NCBI RefSeq assembly: GCF_003334355.1
Contig: NZ_QOWP01000001.1
Source: Escherichia coli
GTDB lineage: Bacteria > Pseudomonadota > Gammaproteobacteria > Enterobacterales > Enterobacteriaceae
Direction: 5' to 3' (one strand)
DNA length: 64,000 nucleotides
The position numbers were made by a program, and so were the translations under genes. Position 1 is the stretch's first letter. Every line of letters starts with the position of its first letter. The notes beneath the pieces were generated by a model. It worked only from the letters and a program-made list of their open reading frames with translations, ran no database searches and had not been told where the DNA came from. This document shows positions 10,263 through 50,973 of the stretch, piece after piece.

Positions 10263-11405
10263 TTAAATCTGCTTTTCATACAATCGGTAACGCTTGTACG
10301 GCTCTGCCCCAATGCGTTCCAGCATGTTATTCATGCCTGTATTGGTTTCGAGGATCCATGACATCTCCAGCGCATCGATCTTCCGGCGGGCAAACGGATC
10401 GCGTAAGGCTTCAATCAATAACAGCGCAATCACCGGGCCGATGCGGCTGAACTGATACTCGTCGCGCACGCCCATCAGCGGTACTCGCGCAGTTCGCACA
10501 CCGCTGACTTTCAAACGCCACAGCAATTTTGCCCAGCCGAAGGGAAAGAGCGATCCGTTCAGATCGGCAATCGCCTCGTTGATGTTCGGCAAGCCGACAA
10601 TAAACGCGCAGGGTGCAGAATCAATCTCAGCGATATAGATCATATCGTCCGGCACCAGATATTTAAGTTGATCGCCCATGGTCGCGAATTCATGTTCGGT
10701 AAACGGCACAAATCCCCAGTTGTGCTGCCAGCCAGAGTTGAAAATCTCACGCAGGATCTGCATCTCTTCGGCAAACCGCTGACGATTGATGCAGCGAATG
10801 GTCACCTTTTTGCGCACCTGATCCATCAGTTTTTTTAGCGCCGGAGAGAAAGTGAGATCGGTTCGCTGCATCCACCACGCCAGTAAATCAATGCCTTTGT
10901 GATAACCCAGTTGTTCAATATGCGCGGCATACCACGGTTTGCCGTGTGGCATCATCGCACAGGGTGGTGTGTCAAAACCTTCAATCAGTAATCCGCTTTC
11001 CTGATTGATATTCAGGCTGAAAGGCCCGCTGATCTTACTTGCACCTTGTGACTTCAACCACGCTTCCGCTACGCCAAACAACGCGGCAAAAACCTGCGGA
11101 TCATCAATGGCGTCAATCATGCCGAAATGACCGGTATCTTTGCCGTAACGCTCGCGGTGCAAGGTATCTATTTGCGCGGTAATACGCCCAACTATCTGCC
11201 CCGCTTTTTTTGCCACCCACGCCTGCCAGATGATATGGTCCGTCCCCGGATTTTTCGCAGACAAATGCTCGTTGCGTTCAATGAATAAAGGGGGTATCCA
11301 GTTTGGATCGTCGGGATAAAGTGATGACGGAAAAGCGATAAATGCCTTAAGGTCATTTTTATTAATTACTTTTTCAATTTTAATCATCAGCAGATCGCAT
11401 TCCAT
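10263..11405 (-). CDS. yghO: YghO, GNAT-fold (acyl-CoA N-acyltransferase superfamily) protein; candidate N-acyltransferase of the adjacent lipid island
   Basis: Long minus-strand ORF; the track start at 11483 is a TTG. First ATG at 11403-11405 gives MECDLLMIKIEKV...; a second candidate ATG lies at 11387. Start uncertain. Family assignment is from memory of YghO annotation, not a motif I can prove here. Confidence 0.65.
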   Translation of the reverse strand: MECDLLMIKIEKVINKNDLKAFIAFPSSLYPDDPNWIPPLFIERNEHLSAKNPGTDHIIWQAWVAKKAGQIVGRITAQIDTLHRERYGKDTGHFGMIDAIDDPQVFAALFGVAEAWLKSQGASKISGPFSLNINQESGLLIEGFDTPPCAMMPHGKPWYAAHIEQLGYHKGIDLLAWWMQRTDLTFSPALKKLMDQVRKKVTIRCINRQRFAEEMQILREIFNSGWQHNWGFVPFTEHEFATMGDQLKYLVPDDMIYIAEIDSAPCAFIVGLPNINEAIADLNGSLFPFGWAKLLWRLKVSGVRTARVPLMGVRDEYQFSRIGPVIALLLIEALRDPFARRKIDALEMSWILETNTGMNNMLERIGAEPYKRYRLYEKQI

Positions 11406-11780
11406 AGTTCTGTTCTGTGGGTAACAAATAATTAACGGTGACAAACAGGTTGCAACAGCAACGAACGGCACCTTAATAATCAACCCAATGAATACAAACG
11501 ACGAATAAATAGTATTTATTAATGATTACGATAAGGTCAGAGACTACACAGAAGCGCCACAATGCCTTTTGTCGATTTAAGGCGACCGGACAAGGCTTCT
11601 TCTTAATACATTCATAAATTAAATATCATTCACAATAAAAACAAAAAACTTAAACTCATTATTTAAATCAATGTTCATTTTCACACCGATGAAAATACTA
11701 TCTCATTTATCTTTTATGCCTATATAATCCACCGCATTATTGTCATTTTATTTTTGATATCCAATTTTTTCGTGGTGTAT
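11406..11780. promoter_or_regulatory. AT-rich divergent promoter region between yghO and the acyl-AMP ligase operon
   Basis: Visibly AT-rich spacer (e.g. ttcataaattaaatatcattcacaataaaaacaaaaaacttaaactcattatttaaatcaatg) between divergent starts; typical of H-NS-silenced accessory promoters. Confidence 0.4.
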
Positions 11781-13502
11781 ATGTCTAATAAAATCTTTAC
11801 GCATTCCCTACCTATGCGCTATGCCGATTTTCCAACGCTGGTTGATGCTTTGGACTACGCCGCTCTGAGTAGCGCCGGAATGAATTTTTATGACAGACGT
11901 TGCCAACTTGAAGATCAACTGGAATATCAGACGTTAAAAACGCGTGCCGAAGCTGGTGCGAAGCGGTTGTTATCGCTGAACCTGAAAAAAGGCGAACGCG
12001 TGGCGCTGATTGCCGAAACGAGTAGCGGGTTCGTAGAGGCTTTTTTTGCCTGCCAGTATGCCGGCTTAGTCGCCGTCCCGTTGGCGATTCCAATGGGCGT
12101 TGGTCAGCGGGATTCCTGGAGCGCCAAATTGCAGGGTTTACTGGCAAGTTGCCAGCCCGCAGCCATTATCACTGGTGATGAGTGGTTGCCACTGGTCAAT
12201 GCCGCGACGCATGACAACCCCGAATTACATGTTTTAAGCCACGCCTGGTTTAAGGCATTACCGGAAGCCGATGTTGCGCTCCAGCGTCCAGTTCCGAACG
12301 ATATCGCCGACCTCCAGTACACCTCCGGCAGCACCCGTTTTCCCCGTGGCGTCATTATCACCCATCGCGAAGTGATGGCTAATCTACGTGCTATAAGCCA
12401 CGACGGCATTAAATTACGCCCTGGCGACCGCTGCGTCTCCTGGCTGCCTTTCTACCATGATATGGGACTGGTCGGCTTTCTCCTGACCCCCGTCGCCACG
12501 CAGCTTTCAGTAGATTATTTGCGCACTCAGGATTTTGCCATACGTCCTCTGCAATGGCTTAAATTGATCAGTAAAAATCGCGGCACCGTTTCCGTTGCGC
12601 CGCCGTTTGGCTATGAATTGTGCCAGCGCCGCGTGAATGAAAAAGATCTCGCTGAACTGGATCTTTCCTGCTGGCGCGTCGCTGGTATTGGTGCAGAACC
12701 CATCTCCGCAGAACAACTCCATCAATTCGCTGAATGTTTCCGTCAGGTTAACTTTGACAATAAAACTTTCATGCCGTGCTACGGACTGGCAGAAAATGCG
12801 CTGGCTGTCAGCTTCTCTGATGAAGCCTCCGGGGTTGTGGTTAACGAAGTGGATCGCGACATCCTCGAATATCAGGGTAAAGCCGTCGCGCCGGGTGCAG
12901 AGACACGCGCCGTATCGACTTTCGTCAACTGCGGCAAAGCGTTGCCGGAACATGGTATTGAAATCCGCAATGAAGCAGGTATGCCGGTCGCGGAACGTGT
13001 GGTAGGCCATATTTGCATCTCCGGTCCCAGTCTGATGAGCGGTTACTTTGGCGACCAGGCTTCGCAAGACGAGATTGCCGCGACGGGCTGGTTAGACACC
13101 GGCGACCTCGGTTATCTGCTGGACGGTTATCTGTATGTCACCGGACGCATTAAAGATCTGATTATTATTCGTGGCCGTAATATCTGGCCGCAGGATATTG
13201 AATATATAGCGGAACAGGAACCGGAAATTCATTCTGGCGATGCGATTGCTTTTGTTACCGCCCAGGAAAAAATCATTTTGCAGATCCAGTGTCGGATCAG
13301 CGACGAAGAACGTCGCGGGCAGCTTATCCACGCGCTGGCGGCACGGATCCAAAGCGAATTTGGCGTGACCGCGGCTATCGATCTGTTGCCGCCCCACAGT
13401 ATTCCCCGAACGTCCTCCGGCAAGCCTGCCCGTGCGGAAGCGAAAAAACGTTATCAGAAGGCTTATGCTGCCAGTCTTAATGTGCAGGAATCCCTGGCAT
13501 GA
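11781..13502 (+). CDS. Fatty acyl-AMP ligase / acyl-ACP synthetase (AMP-binding adenylate-forming family)
   Basis: Adenylation motifs YTSGSTRFPRGV, YGLAEN, DTGDLGY and GRIKDLIIIRGRNIWPQDIE; C-terminal SGKPARAE. Track start 11754 is TTG; first ATG is 11781 (MSNKIF), start uncertain. Stop overlaps next gene start (ATGA at 13499-13502). Confidence 0.8.
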   Translation: MSNKIFTHSLPMRYADFPTLVDALDYAALSSAGMNFYDRRCQLEDQLEYQTLKTRAEAGAKRLLSLNLKKGERVALIAETSSGFVEAFFACQYAGLVAVPLAIPMGVGQRDSWSAKLQGLLASCQPAAIITGDEWLPLVNAATHDNPELHVLSHAWFKALPEADVALQRPVPNDIADLQYTSGSTRFPRGVIITHREVMANLRAISHDGIKLRPGDRCVSWLPFYHDMGLVGFLLTPVATQLSVDYLRTQDFAIRPLQWLKLISKNRGTVSVAPPFGYELCQRRVNEKDLAELDLSCWRVAGIGAEPISAEQLHQFAECFRQVNFDNKTFMPCYGLAENALAVSFSDEASGVVVNEVDRDILEYQGKAVAPGAETRAVSTFVNCGKALPEHGIEIRNEAGMPVAERVVGHICISGPSLMSGYFGDQASQDEIAATGWLDTGDLGYLLDGYLYVTGRIKDLIIIRGRNIWPQDIEYIAEQEPEIHSGDAIAFVTAQEKIILQIQCRISDEERRGQLIHALAARIQSEFGVTAAIDLLPPHSIPRTSSGKPARAEAKKRYQKAYAASLNVQESLA

Positions 13503-14413
13503 ATCAAACTGTCGCGGTGACGGGCGCTACCGGGTTTATCGGTAAATATATTATCGATAACCTGCTCGCCCGCGGCTTTCACGTTCGCGCATTGACGCGT
13601 ACTGCCCGCGCTCACGTCAATGATAATCTCACCTGGGTGCGCGGTTCGCTGGAAGATACTCATTCACTTAGCGAGCTGGTTGCCGGAGCCAGCGTAGTGG
13701 TCCATTGCGCCGGGCAAGTGCGCGGGCACAAAGAAGAGATTTTCACCCGCTGTAACGTTGACGGCAGCCTGCGCCTGATGCAAGCAGCAAAAGAGAGCGG
13801 CTTTTGCCAACGTTTTCTGTTTATCTCTTCGCTGGCGGCGCGCCATCCCGAGCTCTCCTGGTATGCAAAATCCAAATACGTCGCCGAGCAACGACTGGCA
13901 GCAATGGCGGACGAAATTACGCTGGGCGTTTTTCGCCCGACAGCCGTGTATGGTCCCGGCGATAAAGAGTTAAAACCGCTGTTTGACTGGATGCTGCGCG
14001 GCCTGCTGCCACGACTTGGTGCGCCAGATACACAGCTCTCTTTTCTGCACGTCACCGATTTCGCGCAAGCAGTGGGTCAGTGGTTAAGCGCCGAAACTAT
14101 ACAGACGCAAACCTATGAATTATGCGATGGCGTCGCCGGCGGCTATGACTGGCAACGCGTACAGCAACTTGCCGCCGACGCCCGTTGCGGTTCCGTGCGA
14201 ATGGTTGGCATTCCTCTGCCGGTACTCACCGGCCTTGCGGATATCAGTACCGCGTTGAGTCGCCTGGCAGGTAAAGAACCTATGCTGACCCGCTCGAAAA
14301 TTCGTGAATTAACCCACGCCGACTGGTCGGCAAGTAATAACCGTATTTCTGAAGATATTAATTGGTTTCCCGGGATTAGCCTGGAACACGCATTACGCAA
14401 CGGGCTATTTTGA
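13499..14413 (+). CDS. NAD(P)-dependent epimerase/dehydratase-family (extended SDR) protein; candidate keto-reductase
   Basis: N-terminal Rossmann motif VAVTGATGFIGKYI and catalytic YAKSK (YxxxK); 304 aa; start overlaps upstream stop. Confidence 0.8.
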   Translation: MNQTVAVTGATGFIGKYIIDNLLARGFHVRALTRTARAHVNDNLTWVRGSLEDTHSLSELVAGASVVVHCAGQVRGHKEEIFTRCNVDGSLRLMQAAKESGFCQRFLFISSLAARHPELSWYAKSKYVAEQRLAAMADEITLGVFRPTAVYGPGDKELKPLFDWMLRGLLPRLGAPDTQLSFLHVTDFAQAVGQWLSAETIQTQTYELCDGVAGGYDWQRVQQLAADARCGSVRMVGIPLPVLTGLADISTALSRLAGKEPMLTRSKIRELTHADWSASNNRISEDINWFPGISLEHALRNGLF

Positions 14414-14444
14414 TTGTCTTGTTTAAAGGTGTGTTAACGTTTCT

Positions 14445-14693
14445 ATGGTAAATCGTGAAATAGTAATGGATTACATCCTTTCCTGTTTACAGGATTTGGT
14501 CGAAAACGGTGTGGAAATTAAGCCCGACAGCGATCTCGTCAACGATCTTGGCCTGGAGTCGATCAAAGTGATGGATCTCTTAATGATGCTGGAAGACAGA
14601 TTCGATATTTCCATTCCTATTAATATTCTGCTGGATGTCAAAACCCCTGCGCAATTAATGGAAACTCTACTTCCATGGCTGGAGAATAAATAA
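14445..14693 (+). CDS. Acyl carrier protein (stand-alone, pathway-dedicated)
   Basis: 82-aa acidic protein with phosphopantetheine-site-like motif DLGLESIKVMDLLMMLEDRF (ACP consensus DLGxDSLxxVEL); stop overlaps next start (TAATG at 14691-14695). Confidence 0.7.
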   Translation: MVNREIVMDYILSCLQDLVENGVEIKPDSDLVNDLGLESIKVMDLLMMLEDRFDISIPINILLDVKTPAQLMETLLPWLENK

Positions 14694-15865
14694 TGGGGCT
14701 ATACGATAAATATGCGCGCCTTGCTGGCGAGCGACTGCAATTTAGTGACAACGGGTTAACACCGTTTGGCACCTGTATTGATGAAGTGTATTCCGCCACC
14801 GAAGGCCGGATCGGCAATAAAAAAGTGATTCTGGCCGGGACCAATAATTATCTCGGTTTAACCTTTAATCATGATGCCATCAGCGAAGGTCAGGCCGCGT
14901 TAGCGGCCCAAGGTACCGGCACCACCGGTTCTCGTATGGCAAACGGCAGTTATGCGCCGCACCTGGCGTTAGAGAAAGAGATTGCCGAGTTTTTCAATCG
15001 CCCTACCGCTATCGTTTTTTCAACCGGTTATACCGCTAATTTAGGCGTCATCAGCGCACTTGCCGACCATAACGCCGTGGTGTTACTGGATGCCGACAGC
15101 CACGCCAGTATTTATGACGCCTGTTCTCTCGGTGGCGCGGAAATTATTCGTTTCCGCCATAACGATGCTAAAGATCTGGAACGGCGCATGGTTCGCCTCG
15201 GTGAACGGGCGAAAGAGGCGATTATCATCGTTGAGGGTATCTACAGCATGCTCGGTGACGTTGCGCCGTTAGCGGAAATTGTTGATATCAAACGTCGTCT
15301 CGGTGGTTATTTGATTGTCGATGAAGCGCATTCGTTTGGCGTGTTAGGCGCAACGGGGCGCGGACTGGCTGAAGCTGTCGGCGTTGAAGATGATGTGGAT
15401 ATTATCGTTGGCACCTTCAGTAAAAGTCTGGCCTCGATTGGCGGTTTTGCTGTCGGTTCGGAAGCGATGGAAGTGCTGCGCTACGGCAGCCGCCCGTATA
15501 TTTTTACCGCCTCTCCTTCTCCGTCCTGCATTGCGACCGTGCGCTCGTCGTTAAGAACTATTGCCACACAACCAGAGCTGCGGCAAAAGCTGATGGATAA
15601 TGCCAACCATCTGTATGACGGTCTGCAAAAACTGGGTTATGAGTTAAGTTCACATATTAGCCCGGTAGTGCCGGTAATAATCGGTTCGAAAGAGGACGGT
15701 TTACGCATCTGGCGCGAGCTTATTTCGCTGGGCGTTTATGTGAATCTTATCCTGCCACCTGCCGCGCCTGCAGGCATCACGCTGCTGCGCTGTAGCGTAA
15801 ACGCTGCTCACAGTCGTGAGCAAATCGATGCCATCATTCAGGCATTTGCTACTCTGAAGCAGTAA
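14693..15865 (+). CDS. PLP-dependent alpha-oxoamine synthase, serine-palmitoyltransferase-like
   Basis: 390 aa; PLP-lysine motif VGTFSKSLASIGGF (GTFSKS...GG is the Spt-type variant; BioF and Kbl have GTLSKA / GTLGKA); also DEAHS and glycine-rich TGTTGSR segments typical of the fold. Confidence 0.85.
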   Translation: MGLYDKYARLAGERLQFSDNGLTPFGTCIDEVYSATEGRIGNKKVILAGTNNYLGLTFNHDAISEGQAALAAQGTGTTGSRMANGSYAPHLALEKEIAEFFNRPTAIVFSTGYTANLGVISALADHNAVVLLDADSHASIYDACSLGGAEIIRFRHNDAKDLERRMVRLGERAKEAIIIVEGIYSMLGDVAPLAEIVDIKRRLGGYLIVDEAHSFGVLGATGRGLAEAVGVEDDVDIIVGTFSKSLASIGGFAVGSEAMEVLRYGSRPYIFTASPSPSCIATVRSSLRTIATQPELRQKLMDNANHLYDGLQKLGYELSSHISPVVPVIIGSKEDGLRIWRELISLGVYVNLILPPAAPAGITLLRCSVNAAHSREQIDAIIQAFATLKQ

Positions 15866-15871
15866 TGTGAG

Positions 15872-15905
15872 CCCGCCGTGGTGTTGCGCCACGGCGGGTT
15901 TAATG
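15872..15905. terminator. Bidirectional intrinsic terminator between convergent operons
   Basis: Stem cccgccgtgg / ccacggcggg (15872-15898) followed by ttt, lying exactly between the stop of the Spt-like gene (15863-15865) and the convergent LptG-like stop (15900-15902). Confidence 0.5.
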
Positions 15906-16979
15906 TTGTCTGTCATACCAATACACCAGGCTCAACGCCACCAGCACAAACGCTATCGGTAAACCGAGCGCGGTAACAGGTGCGCTCAACGCAAATAGCA
16001 ATCCCAGATTGACCATGATTTGATAGCTGATCCAGGTGAGTAAGCCAACGATGACACCTACAGCGAGACGGCTACCCATCCCTGGCGAGCGCGGGGCGCT
16101 AAAGGTAAACGGCACAGCCAGCAAAATCATCGCCAGGGTCAGGATGGGTTGCCCCAGTTTTTCCCACAGTGCAAGGCGGTATTCGCTGCTGGGTTGCCCG
16201 GTTTCCTGCAAATAATGGATGTAATGATTAAGCTAACGGACAGAAAAAGTATTGCCCGGCATTGATAACTCTTCAAGATCCATACTGGTGAAGGCCGATT
16301 GCCAGGCAAGATTATCTAATGTTTCCAGCGTTTCTTTGCCATTCAGCCATTTTTTATGATTCACACCATGCAGGATCCACGTTTTGTCGTCTTCAATGGT
16401 GGCACTGCGTGCATAAATGTAGGATTCGAGCGAGAGATCGTCGCGATAATGAAAAATCTCCACGCCCACCGGCTGGCCCTGCTCGTTCAGCGATTTCACC
16501 GTCACAAATTCATTACCACGCCTGGCCCACAGCATATTGCCGGTAATGTCATCGTCCTCCCCCAACGCGGTGGCGGTCGATTTGATTTGCAACGCCTGTT
16601 GCTGTAATGGCGACGCTACCCACTCATCTATCGCGCCTAACGAAACAGTCCACAATATCCCTGCAACCAGCGCCACCAGTGCAATACGGAAGATAGAAAA
16701 CCCCATGCTGCGAATGGCGGTAAGCTCACTGTTTTTCGATAACTGCCCCAGGCCGACAATCCCTCCCAATAAGGCGATAAATGGCGAAAGTTCGACCAGT
16801 GTGCGCGGTAAGGTCATTAGCACCACCAGCACCGCCTGAGTCCAGCGATAACCGCCCGGGCTGACATCATCCAGTTCGTTAATCAGGTTGAAGGTGGTAA
16901 AAAGCGGCAGCAATAGCCCTGCGGCGGCGGCAAAACCGAGAAAGAGATGACGGATTAAATAGCGGCTGAAAACATTCAT
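15900..16979 (-). pseudogene. LptG-like (YjgP/YjgQ family) permease interrupted by a single in-frame TAG
   Basis: ORFs 16233..17060 (N-part; ATG at 16979, MNVFSRYLIRHLFLGF...) and 15900..16211 (C-part, ...YRLALWEKLGQPILTLAMILLAVPF...) are in the same frame, separated only by TAG at 16233-16235. Together they give a ~360-codon LptG-type reading frame. Confidence 0.65.
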
Positions 16980-18046
16980 CGGGAAAATTTCTGCAGCAAA
17001 GAGAAGTCGCGTGCGACCAGCATCAGCAGGCCCATTAGCATGAGTCCGGGTACTAACCACAAACCAGGAATGAGGGGAATCGCGCCGTTAGCCACCAGCG
17101 TACGGCAGACGTCACCGCCATAAAAAATGGCAATAAACAGCAACGTCAGTGGCAATAACGTTGAAAATCGCCCTTGCCGCGGTTTTACCCGACTTAATGA
17201 AATGGCCAGCAGCGCCATCAACAATGCGGTCAGGCCACGGCTTTGCCGCCATTGCAGTTCGGCATGATCGGCCGGAAAGACGGAGCGCGCCAGCTCCGTG
17301 ACCGATTTTGCTTTGCGTTTGACGTTAGGGCTTTGATCCAGCGGATTCAGATGTAATTGCAGATTACGGTAGATCTGTTCGTTGTCGTCACGCCCCTGAT
17401 GATCGAGAAGATAGGCGGTGCCGTTGTGCAACATAACGGTCGGTTTCTCGGGAGATGGGTCAACCACATCAACCGAACGGGCACGGAAAATGCGGGTTCG
17501 ATTGGCAGTAGAAGTATAAATCAGCGCGTCAGTCAGGCGATTATTATCCTGATCAACCGTCTGCGAAAGGATCATTCGTCCGTTATCGTTAGTGTTAAAT
17601 TTCTTTGCCCGCAACTGGCGAACATCCAGCTCCGACTGCGACTGCTGCTCCAGTTGATAAATCTGCGCATAAGCCCACGGACGACCATACATCGACAGAA
17701 GGGTGACAAAAATACTTAGCGGTATCGCCAGATAAAGAACGGCTTTGTACAAGCGTCCCGGACTGCCCCCCGCCGCAGAGATAGCGGTAATTTCCGAGTC
17801 GGTATACATCTGCCCTAGCGTCACGCCAACTGACACATACAGACCAACAGGTAACAACATCTCCAGTGCAATCAGCACTTTGTAGAAAACGATATCCAGC
17901 ACAACATCAAGAGCTAATGTCCCATTTGCCGCTTCGGTCAGATAACGCTGTGAGGAGTAGCTGGCGAAAATAAAGATCAGAAAACCGACGATAATCAGCA
18001 CCAGACGGCGCGTACCACGCATGATGTAGTGTTCAACCAGCTTCAT
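16976..18046 (-). CDS. LptF-like (YjgP/YjgQ family) permease paralog
   Basis: 356-aa membrane protein; MYTDSEITAISAAGGSPGRLYK and SRVKPRQGRFSTLLP resemble LptF LYTESEIT / NPRQGR motifs; stop overlaps LptG-like start (ATGA at 16976-16979). Confidence 0.8.
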   Translation of the reverse strand: MKLVEHYIMRGTRRLVLIIVGFLIFIFASYSSQRYLTEAANGTLALDVVLDIVFYKVLIALEMLLPVGLYVSVGVTLGQMYTDSEITAISAAGGSPGRLYKAVLYLAIPLSIFVTLLSMYGRPWAYAQIYQLEQQSQSELDVRQLRAKKFNTNDNGRMILSQTVDQDNNRLTDALIYTSTANRTRIFRARSVDVVDPSPEKPTVMLHNGTAYLLDHQGRDDNEQIYRNLQLHLNPLDQSPNVKRKAKSVTELARSVFPADHAELQWRQSRGLTALLMALLAISLSRVKPRQGRFSTLLPLTLLFIAIFYGGDVCRTLVANGAIPLIPGLWLVPGLMLMGLLMLVARDFSLLQKFSR

Positions 18047-18076
18047 CTCACTAACGCCCTCAATCCTTTGAGTTTT

Positions 18077-18640
18077 TTATTCATTGATCAGTTTCTGCGC
18101 CAACGCAATGACATGATCTACCTCTTCCGGCGTCAGGCTGCCGTCCTTTGCCCACTGAATTTGCCCGGCTTTATTCAGCACCAGAATGGTTGAACTCTGC
18201 TCCGGCAAGCGCCAGGCAACGCGTCCCTGTCCATTGCCGTCAATAACGAATTGCGCCCACGGATAGCGGCGTTTATTTTTTTCGATTTTGCCAACAACAA
18301 AATAGCCAGTACCAAAGATGGCATCATCGGTGTTCACAATGGTGGTGGGCTGAAAACGATCCTGCGGAAAGTTTGCCGCTTCAACCGCTTTAATTAACAG
18401 TGAGTTCTTTTTCTTCGCCGACTTACGCCCGGCGATATACTGGATAATGCGGACTTTTCCCGCCAATTGTGTGCTGTTCCACTTTTGGTAGTGAATTTCG
18501 TCGTCACTATTCAGAAGCAGCTCGCCGCCTTCCTGGATATAAACGGGGGTAACCGTTTTGCCAGTGACGAAATTGTGTGCCTGAACACCCGGGGCTAAGA
18601 GCATGATAATCAGCGCAATAATCAAACGAAATGACATCAT
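18077..18640 (-). CDS. Periplasmic YtfJ-family-like protein with signal peptide
   Basis: 187 aa, N-terminal signal peptide MMSFRLIIALIIMLLAPGVQA; central TTIVNTDDAIFGTGYF and C-terminal WAKDGSLTPEEV resemble YtfJ (from memory). Confidence 0.55.
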   Translation of the reverse strand: MMSFRLIIALIIMLLAPGVQAHNFVTGKTVTPVYIQEGGELLLNSDDEIHYQKWNSTQLAGKVRIIQYIAGRKSAKKKNSLLIKAVEAANFPQDRFQPTTIVNTDDAIFGTGYFVVGKIEKNKRRYPWAQFVIDGNGQGRVAWRLPEQSSTILVLNKAGQIQWAKDGSLTPEEVDHVIALAQKLINE

Positions 18641-18648
18641 TGCTCCGG

Positions 18649-39012: not shown

Positions 39013-39112
39013 TTACCTGATGTGGCGAAAACGCCTTATCCGCCTACAAACGCATGAAGATTCAACATGTTGCAATAGATTTTGTAGGCCTGATGAGCGT
39101 AGCGCATCAGGC
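39013..39112. repeat. REP/BIME element
   Basis: cgccttatccgcctac and gtaggcctgatgagcgtagcgcatcaggc palindromic REP units between yghA and exbD. Confidence 0.55.
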
Positions 39113-39121
39113 AATTCTACT

Positions 39122-49560: not shown

Positions 49561-50973
49561 TTACGGTACCGGATTGACCAACAGTTGCCCAATCGAGCCA
49601 CGGTCCGCCATTTCCAGCGTCTGACTGTTGAAGTAGAACGGGAAGTGCGCCCAGGAAGGCTGACCGAAATAAACAAGCAGCTCCACTTGTCCGTCAACCC
49701 AAACGGTATCTTTCCAGCCTCTGTCTTCCGGGAACGGCATCGCGCCATTCACGTTACGGATCTGGAACATTACGCCTTCAATATGGAACGCTTGCGGCTC
49801 GTCCGCGCGTACCGTCCAGCGTTCCCACGTTCCTTGCTGCGCGGTGACATCAATACGGTTGACGTCCCACAGCTGTCCATTAATACCCGGGTCATCACCC
49901 AGACTGATATCGCGACTGCGAATTGGCGAACCAGCCATGATTTCAGTTGGCAGCAAGCGCATCGGAAGACTGTCTGTGACCAGCGGCAGAAGGCCGGTTG
50001 GGCGCAGCGTTAGCACCAGGGTAGAAACCAGAATACTGGATGGCTCAAAGAAGCCACGAATACGATCAACAATGCTCGCCGCTTCGCCACAGGTGATCGA
50101 CACTTCATCGCCGTTGCTCATATCCACCAGAATCTCGCGGCGCTCGCCCGGTGCCAGCGAAAGTTGCTTCACCGATACAGGAGCAGGCAGGAATCCCTGA
50201 TCGCCAGAAATCACATGTAACGGGCGACCATCGTTCATCTGTAGTTGATAGCGACGAGAGTTCGACGCGTTCAGCAGTCGCAAGCGCACCCAGCCACGCG
50301 AGACTTCAACGTACGGGCTTTGTACACCGTTAACCAGCAGCGTATCACCAACAAAGCCGCCGCTTCCCGGTTCGTTGTATTCTGGCGTACCAAAGTTATC
50401 CAGCCGTTTATCCTGGATAATGACCGGAAAATCATCCACACCATAATGGTTGGGGATAGGCAGCGACTTGCTGACTTCATCTTCCACCAGCCACATTCCG
50501 GCAAGGCCGTTATAGACCTGCTGAGCCGTGCGGTTGGGAGTATTGGCGTGATACCACAGAGTAGCTGCGTTCTGGCGAATGGGCAGTACGGGTGCCCAGT
50601 CAGCGTTTGGCGACATCATCCGTGCCGGACCGCCCATCAGCGGGCCTGGTACCTGTAGCCCGGCCACCGTCATTGAGACATTTTCTGTCAGGCGGTTGCT
50701 GTAAATAAGCTTAACATCGTCGCCCTTCCAGACGCGGATAGTCGGCCCCAGGTAACGACCATTGATTCCCCAGACCGACGCGCGTGTCCCTGGCGTAAAT
50801 GACCAGTGCGCACGTTGTACAGTCATAAACAGCGGTTGCCCACGGCGAGATTCAAGTAGCGGCGGAACGGGTAGCGGTTGCTGTTGCCCGGCTGCGCTGG
50901 CCTTCAGGGGAACAGCGCCTGCACAAAGTGCAATCCCCGATGCCTGAATGAACTGACGCCGACTGAGTGACAT
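49561..50973 (-). CDS. ftsP: Cell division protein FtsP (SufI), multicopper-oxidase fold, Tat substrate
   Basis: 470 aa; twin-arginine signal MSLSRRQFIQASGIALCAGAVPLKASA. Confidence 0.95.
   Translation of the reverse strand: MSLSRRQFIQASGIALCAGAVPLKASAAGQQQPLPVPPLLESRRGQPLFMTVQRAHWSFTPGTRASVWGINGRYLGPTIRVWKGDDVKLIYSNRLTENVSMTVAGLQVPGPLMGGPARMMSPNADWAPVLPIRQNAATLWYHANTPNRTAQQVYNGLAGMWLVEDEVSKSLPIPNHYGVDDFPVIIQDKRLDNFGTPEYNEPGSGGFVGDTLLVNGVQSPYVEVSRGWVRLRLLNASNSRRYQLQMNDGRPLHVISGDQGFLPAPVSVKQLSLAPGERREILVDMSNGDEVSITCGEAASIVDRIRGFFEPSSILVSTLVLTLRPTGLLPLVTDSLPMRLLPTEIMAGSPIRSRDISLGDDPGINGQLWDVNRIDVTAQQGTWERWTVRADEPQAFHIEGVMFQIRNVNGAMPFPEDRGWKDTVWVDGQVELLVYFGQPSWAHFPFYFNSQTLEMADRGSIGQLLVNPVP

Follow-up and report, generated by a model that had tools for sequence, protein, structure and literature searches.

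An inherited amber codon in an LptG2-type permease gene of the accessory sphingolipid locus of Escherichia coli

Results

Organization of the sphingolipid locus

The window, that is, the whole 64-kb stretch of E. coli DNA analysed here, contains a sphingolipid locus situated between glcC and pitB, which was found in ~4100 of 5426 complete E. coli genomes. Its synthesis genes are yghO (10263-11405, minus strand), aasR (11814..13502, plus strand), epi (13499-14413), acpR (14445-14693) and spt (14693..15865, plus strand), where yghO, epi, acpR and the intact serine palmitoyltransferase gene spt make up the ceramide-synthesis arm, and aasR encodes a fatty acyl-AMP ligase / acyl-AcpR synthetase 99% identical to EcFAAL (PDB 3PBK). 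These five genes correspond to the dihydroceramide set published for E. coli BL21(DE3), and biochemical characterisation is available for AasR, AcpR and Spt (PMC9386255).

A divergent operon, yghS-yghR-(yghQ-type flippase)-hyp-ytfJ-like-lptF2-lptG2, completes the locus. The lptF2-type gene (16976..18046, minus strand) is intact, scores 317 bits against TIGR04407 (curated cutoff, 230 bits) and is translationally coupled to lptG2 (15900..16979, minus strand), whose ATG start at 16979 overlaps the lptF2 stop codon as ATGA. The spt and lptG2 genes converge on a GC-rich hairpin (15868..15902). The locus also bears three paralogous P-loop proteins, yghR, yghS and yghT (20868-23237), annotated as 'dTMP kinase / ATP-binding', and an LptB-type ABC ATPase is absent from it.

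A single internal stop in a 359-codon LptG-type frame

Translation of the minus-strand frame 15900-16979 gave 359 codons ending with TAA and exactly one internal stop, an amber codon TAG at codon 249 (16233..16235, minus strand, with T, A and G at 16235, 16234 and 16233, respectively). When Gln was restored at codon 249, the protein matched NCBIfam TIGR04408 (LptG) over residues 4-354 with 308.3 bits, well above the curated cutoff of 240 bits, and aligned over its full length with the solved LptG chains 6MJP, 5X5Y and 6MHU. PF03739 (LptF/LptG permease family) matched both fragments, and the two halves aligned end to end with intact 359-aa orthologues as well as with the solved LptG structures. 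A score of this height excludes a chance pattern, and the fit of the restored frame to the family model and to the structures over the full length indicates that lptG2 is one gene interrupted once, not two genes. The first-pass annotation, which had described an LptG-like gene split by a single in-frame TAG and a read-through product of ~360 codons, was therefore borne out, with the coordinates of the stop exact. Its upstream reading frame (16233..17060) ends correctly at the TAG; however, the 5′ end belongs to a mechanical ORF opened by an upstream GTG, the actual start being the ATG at 16979.

The interruption leaves an N-terminal stretch of 248 codons (16236..16979, minus strand) that can still be made into a product comprising TM1-3 and most of the periplasmic domain, as judged from hydropathy, and an untranslated C-terminal remnant (codons 250-359; 15900..16232, minus strand) that encodes TM4-6 and encloses a mechanical ORF opened by TTG (15900-16211).

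lptG2 is distinct from the gene of the essential LPS exporter

In order to assign the gene, we considered its similarity to the canonical permease, its neighbours and its partner. Canonical E. coli LptG (YjgQ, b4262) and LptG2 share family, length and topology, and the PDB entries 6MHU, 6MIT and 6S8G align with restored LptG2 over the full length; the two differ, however, in sequence (28% identity between canonical LptG and the restored protein), in chromosomal site and in neighbours. In the closed genome of strain PSS-12, which carries the same amber allele, the canonical lptF and lptG genes are intact beside pepA, a pair that lies outside the 64-kb window. On the other hand, the gene under study shares its locus with spt, acpR, aasR, epi and a yghO-type acyltransferase gene (identities from PMC9386255) and its operon with an LptF paralog. 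By family match, neighbours and partner it is thus placed as an accessory LptG2-type paralog of the sphingolipid locus and not as the essential LPS permease. Consequently, the RefSeq name 'LPS export ABC transporter permease LptG' is probably misleading for this paralog, concealing a distinct gene of the sphingolipid locus.

This assignment also bears on the suggestion of the first-pass annotation that a pathway is decaying in the lineage: the decay was supported, whereas the pathway concerned is the accessory sphingolipid locus and not LPS export.

Codon 249 is ancestrally CAG and the amber allele is rare

The intact orthologue YPE10 (WP_001318997.1) has CAG (Gln) at the position aligned with codon 249, so that the amber codon corresponds to a C-to-T transition on the coding strand (Q249*). 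We then estimated the frequency of both alleles among 5426 complete E. coli genomes by use of a 31-mer centred on the TAG, which seeds a megablast match solely when the T is present. The TAG 31-mer occurred in only one genome, that of PSS-12, and the same 31-mer with CAG in 3337; with 61-mers, an exact TAG match was again confined to PSS-12, and the exact CAG version was present in 883 genomes. The comparison of the orthologous codon proposed by the first-pass annotation thus yielded CAG in thousands of genomes. The PSS-12 copy (AABK13_RS18195, NZ_AP027697.1) had already been labelled by RefSeq/PGAP as lptG, 'pseudogene, internal stop'.

Outside E. coli, each orthologue is encoded by one uninterrupted ORF of 355-360 aa, both in E. 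albertii (89% identity) and, at 65-75% identity, in Citrobacter, Hafnia, Shimwellia, Serratia, Pantoea, Erwinia and Sodalis. Other truncated lptG2 products in the protein collection were anecdotal cases only.

Readthrough of the stop and a split permease

Two readings in which LptG2 function would persist were weighed. In the first, functional full-length LptG2 is still made because a suppressor tRNA or efficient natural readthrough lets ribosomes pass the TAG. A C after UAG makes for a relatively weak stop in E. coli, and Gln is often inserted when UAG is decoded by near-cognate tRNAs; at this UAG-C, tRNA-Gln would bring back the ancestral residue. Nevertheless, the 64-kb window contains no tRNA gene, and the anticodons inspected in the sister genome PSS-12 were all wild type (CTG for glnV/glnX, TTG for glnU/glnW, CAA for leuX and TTT for the lysT cluster), indicating that none of the supE, supP, supB and supG/L alleles is present at those loci. 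The search for amber suppressors suggested in the first-pass annotation was thus negative for these loci of PSS-12, which are a part of the possible suppressor loci. Programmed recoding is contradicted by the absence of a conserved in-frame stop among the orthologues, since the TAG is confined to one complete E. coli genome and the frame is uninterrupted in the other genera. In addition, the PSS-12 copy has acquired a missense change downstream of the stop (E266A), which is a single event and weakly suggestive. We therefore consider it very unlikely that readthrough maintains LptG2 function, although basal UAG readthrough could possibly yield traces of the full-length protein, not normal levels.

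The second reading holds that lptG2 now yields a split permease assembled from two polypeptides, residues 1-248 and 257-359. An in-frame TTG at codon 257, eight codons past the stop, indeed opens a 103-codon ORF (15900..16211) that covers TM4-6 and is called by gene callers; however, we read no Shine-Dalgarno-like purine-rich stretch ahead of this TTG, and only one recent lineage has the split, which no orthologue of any genus shares. The two-gene arrangement in orthologues that the first-pass annotation had named as refuting its reading was likewise contradicted by the single ORFs of other strains and genera, and a split permease appears highly improbable.

The amber allele is inherited within one lineage

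The allele was then traced through other isolates. The window and PSS-12, which bear the identical Q249* allele, are 99.97% identical over ~63.4 kb and differ by ~18 SNPs, by a REP copy-number difference and over the first 614 bases, showing that they are distinct isolates. The TAG was also present on contigs of ERR4578542 and SRR3823860, which matched the window without a difference over 14.7 and 11.5 kb, respectively, and, along with a few other differences, on contigs of ERR10677920 and SRR24680064 and in the assembly GCA_003293365.1. Four NCBI accessions and Logan assemblies contain the exact 248-aa truncated product. Six further contigs (L015-L020) that encode exactly this product were not TAG carriers; they are CAG contigs that end at that base, and they were left out of the count of the TAG allele.

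A substitution common to many independent datasets by descent must be a real inherited allele. The remaining explanation, that a true CAG was misread or misassembled as TAG, has in its favour that one base separates the two alleles, and it is practically eliminated by the recurrence of the same base in PSS-12 and in contigs of five or more additional datasets and by its nature as a substitution outside any homopolymer run. Among the three options left by the first-pass annotation, sequencing error is thus discarded, and the nonsense mutation in a decaying pathway is the one supported by the ancestral CAG and by the repeated appearance of the TAG in one lineage, across assemblies and sequencing runs that are independent of each other. 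Since the orthologues have a sense codon at position 249 and the allele is inherited and not an artefact, lptG2 of this lineage belongs to the pseudogenes made by point mutation.

Predicted consequence of the truncation

Hydropathy of the restored protein indicated hydrophobic segments at residues 8-33, 50-78 and 87-119 and then at 275-297, 305-331 and 324-356, a 3+3 arrangement on either side of a hydrophilic domain (residues 120-274). The uninterrupted six-TM polypeptide characteristic of the LptF/LptG family is therefore not encoded by this allele, as segments 4-6 lie beyond the stop at codon 249. Because half of the membrane domain is missing, the 248-residue product should be inactive. 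No polar effect is expected, since lptG2 is the last gene of the operon and the GC-rich hairpin follows it.

We consider it very probable that this is a genuine inherited nonsense mutation and that lptG2 is a pseudogene in a decaying accessory sphingolipid locus. The course of events would be as follows: a point mutation turned CAG into TAG (Gln249 to amber) and was passed on by vertical descent; translation would end after residue 248, keeping TM1-3 and most of the periplasmic domain and losing TM4-6; and the truncated LptG2 would be unable to form the LptF2-LptG2 permease dimer, from which we infer loss of function. The essential LPS exporter LptFG, encoded elsewhere, would be unaffected. 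Q249* would then be one of several signs that the accessory sphingolipid locus is being lost in the lineage. For annotation, such a gene would count as a true pseudogene of an accessory paralog, pointing neither to a defect in essential LPS export nor to recoding.

Further changes in the synthesis genes of the same lineage

Differences between the lineage and its relatives were polarised by means of two close outgroups, CP131_Sichuan and AR_0369. In this comparison, the window and PSS-12 shared Q249* together with several changes in aasR, one of which, Y166D (GAC at 12309-12311), falls in the adenylation motif DIA-Y-LQYTSGST; the close relative CP131_Sichuan retains CAG and Y166. The 31-mer bearing Y166D was found in PSS-12 only, whereas the ancestral 31-mer was present in 4006 genomes. 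We also collected 300 instances of the motif from 145 diverse homologs (representatives of 50%-identity clusters), in which position 166 was occupied by Y (167), F (93), L, H, C, M, N or S, and by D or E in none of the 300. As the position is never acidic in these homologous motifs, Y166D is probably damaging to AasR. D166 and the split lptG2 were completely linked, occurring together in every available contig, and exact-protein look-up gave no intermediate with only Q249* or only Y166D. In one member of the TAG lineage, GCA_003293365.1, an IS1 has entered acpR near codon 65, corresponding to ~14639 in the window (L014, 9342-9836), and the left end of this IS1 reads GGTGATGCTGCCAACTTACTGAT.

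These observations raise the idea that Q249* and Y166D are functionally coupled, in the sense that blocked formation of acyl-AcpR allowed or compensated the loss of the exporter, an analogy drawn from Caulobacter, in which lptG2 can be lost only with sphingolipid synthesis off. The linkage of the two changes, the never-acidic Y166 and the IS1 in acpR of one lineage member speak for such a coupling, and strain E8, which is without the whole transporter operon and has all five synthesis genes annotated as intact, speaks against it. The E8 genome in particular argues against an obligatory coupling of synthesis and export, and we regard the coupling as rather unlikely. If it were true, however, the lineage would provide natural genetic evidence of an active sphingolipid pathway in E. 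coli, whose product is toxic when not exported.

Losses of lptG2 in other lineages

E. coli lineages have lost the sphingolipid locus repeatedly. In strain E8 (NZ_CM180514.1; L021, 5289-6340), an IS1 is located at the same spot of lptG2, with the junction IS1|CGTCAGCTT, and the genes from yghS through codon ~247 of lptG2 are deleted, while the five synthesis genes are annotated as intact. Five of the six CAG contigs described above (L015-L020) belonged to one lineage, and the two that were long enough to compare matched E8 in the pitB-yghT flank. In K-12 MG1655 (L009, 3130146-3131340), an IS5 (insH9) stands in place of the region from the 5′ end of yghO to the 5′ part of yghQ, and this IS5-associated replacement accounts for the lack of spt, lptF2 and lptG2 in K-12. 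K-12 and E8 thus resemble the lineage of the window in having lost lptG2 from the same accessory locus; however, their losses are IS-associated deletions of many genes and not a point nonsense mutation. We also observed a 456-aa E. coli product (P0019) in which a GspC domain (PF11356) is joined to a stretch that matches 72% of LptG2 at 100% identity, which suggests a deletion fusing gspC to lptG2 in some strain.

Discussion

Relation to the Caulobacter LptF2-LptG2 transporter

In Caulobacter, LptF2 and LptG2 of the sphingolipid locus assemble with each other and with the housekeeping LptB, their genes tolerate deletion only in strains that also lack spt or cpgB, and homologs of this LptF2G2 type export sphingolipid (bioRxiv 10.64898/2026.04.12.717747; see also PMC11324152). 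The E. coli UTI89 locus has been drawn as homologous (Figure 2B in bioRxiv 10.64898/2026.04.12.717747). Caulobacter crescentus LptG2 (CCNA_01213 / CC_1155) is, like E. coli LptG2, an LptG-family permease that is encoded in a sphingolipid locus and adjoins an LptF paralog, and neither locus has an LptB homolog. On these grounds, the product of E. coli lptG2 is presumed to be a subunit of a sphingolipid exporter. The transport role, however, has been shown for Caulobacter, whereas for E. coli, whose lptG2 is truncated here, it would follow by homology from Caulobacter LptF2G2. We found no public evidence of expression of the sphingolipid locus or of sphingolipid production in vivo in E. coli.

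The two systems also differ in the cost of losing the permease: loss of lptG2 is lethal in Caulobacter unless spt or cpgB is removed, whereas it is tolerated in E. coli lineages. The Q249* lineage, the IS1 lineage related to E8 and K-12 are natural lptG2 knock-outs, and their existence implies that the putative sphingolipid exporter is dispensable in E. coli. Those strains provide ready material for probing the activity of the E. coli locus.

Remaining differences between the window and PSS-12

Of 19 SNPs between the window and PSS-12, 8 fell in the sphingolipid locus (10263-23237), a density ~2.8-fold that of the remaining sequence (binomial P ~0.03). Nonsynonymous and synonymous changes stood at 5:2 both within the locus and beyond it, so that relaxed selection after the stop gains no support. 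At window positions 1-614, the minus strand carries what we take to be the 5′ end of the sslE/yghJ lipoprotein gene, in place of which PSS-12 has an IS1 followed by gspC. A REP-like palindromic unit (39030-39113) differs in copy number between the two. The nonsynonymous differences outside the locus were at 50792 (ftsP P61L), 53646 (parC L211Q), 56830 (mqsR Y7H), 58526 (qseB V132A) and 59412 (qseC A209T).
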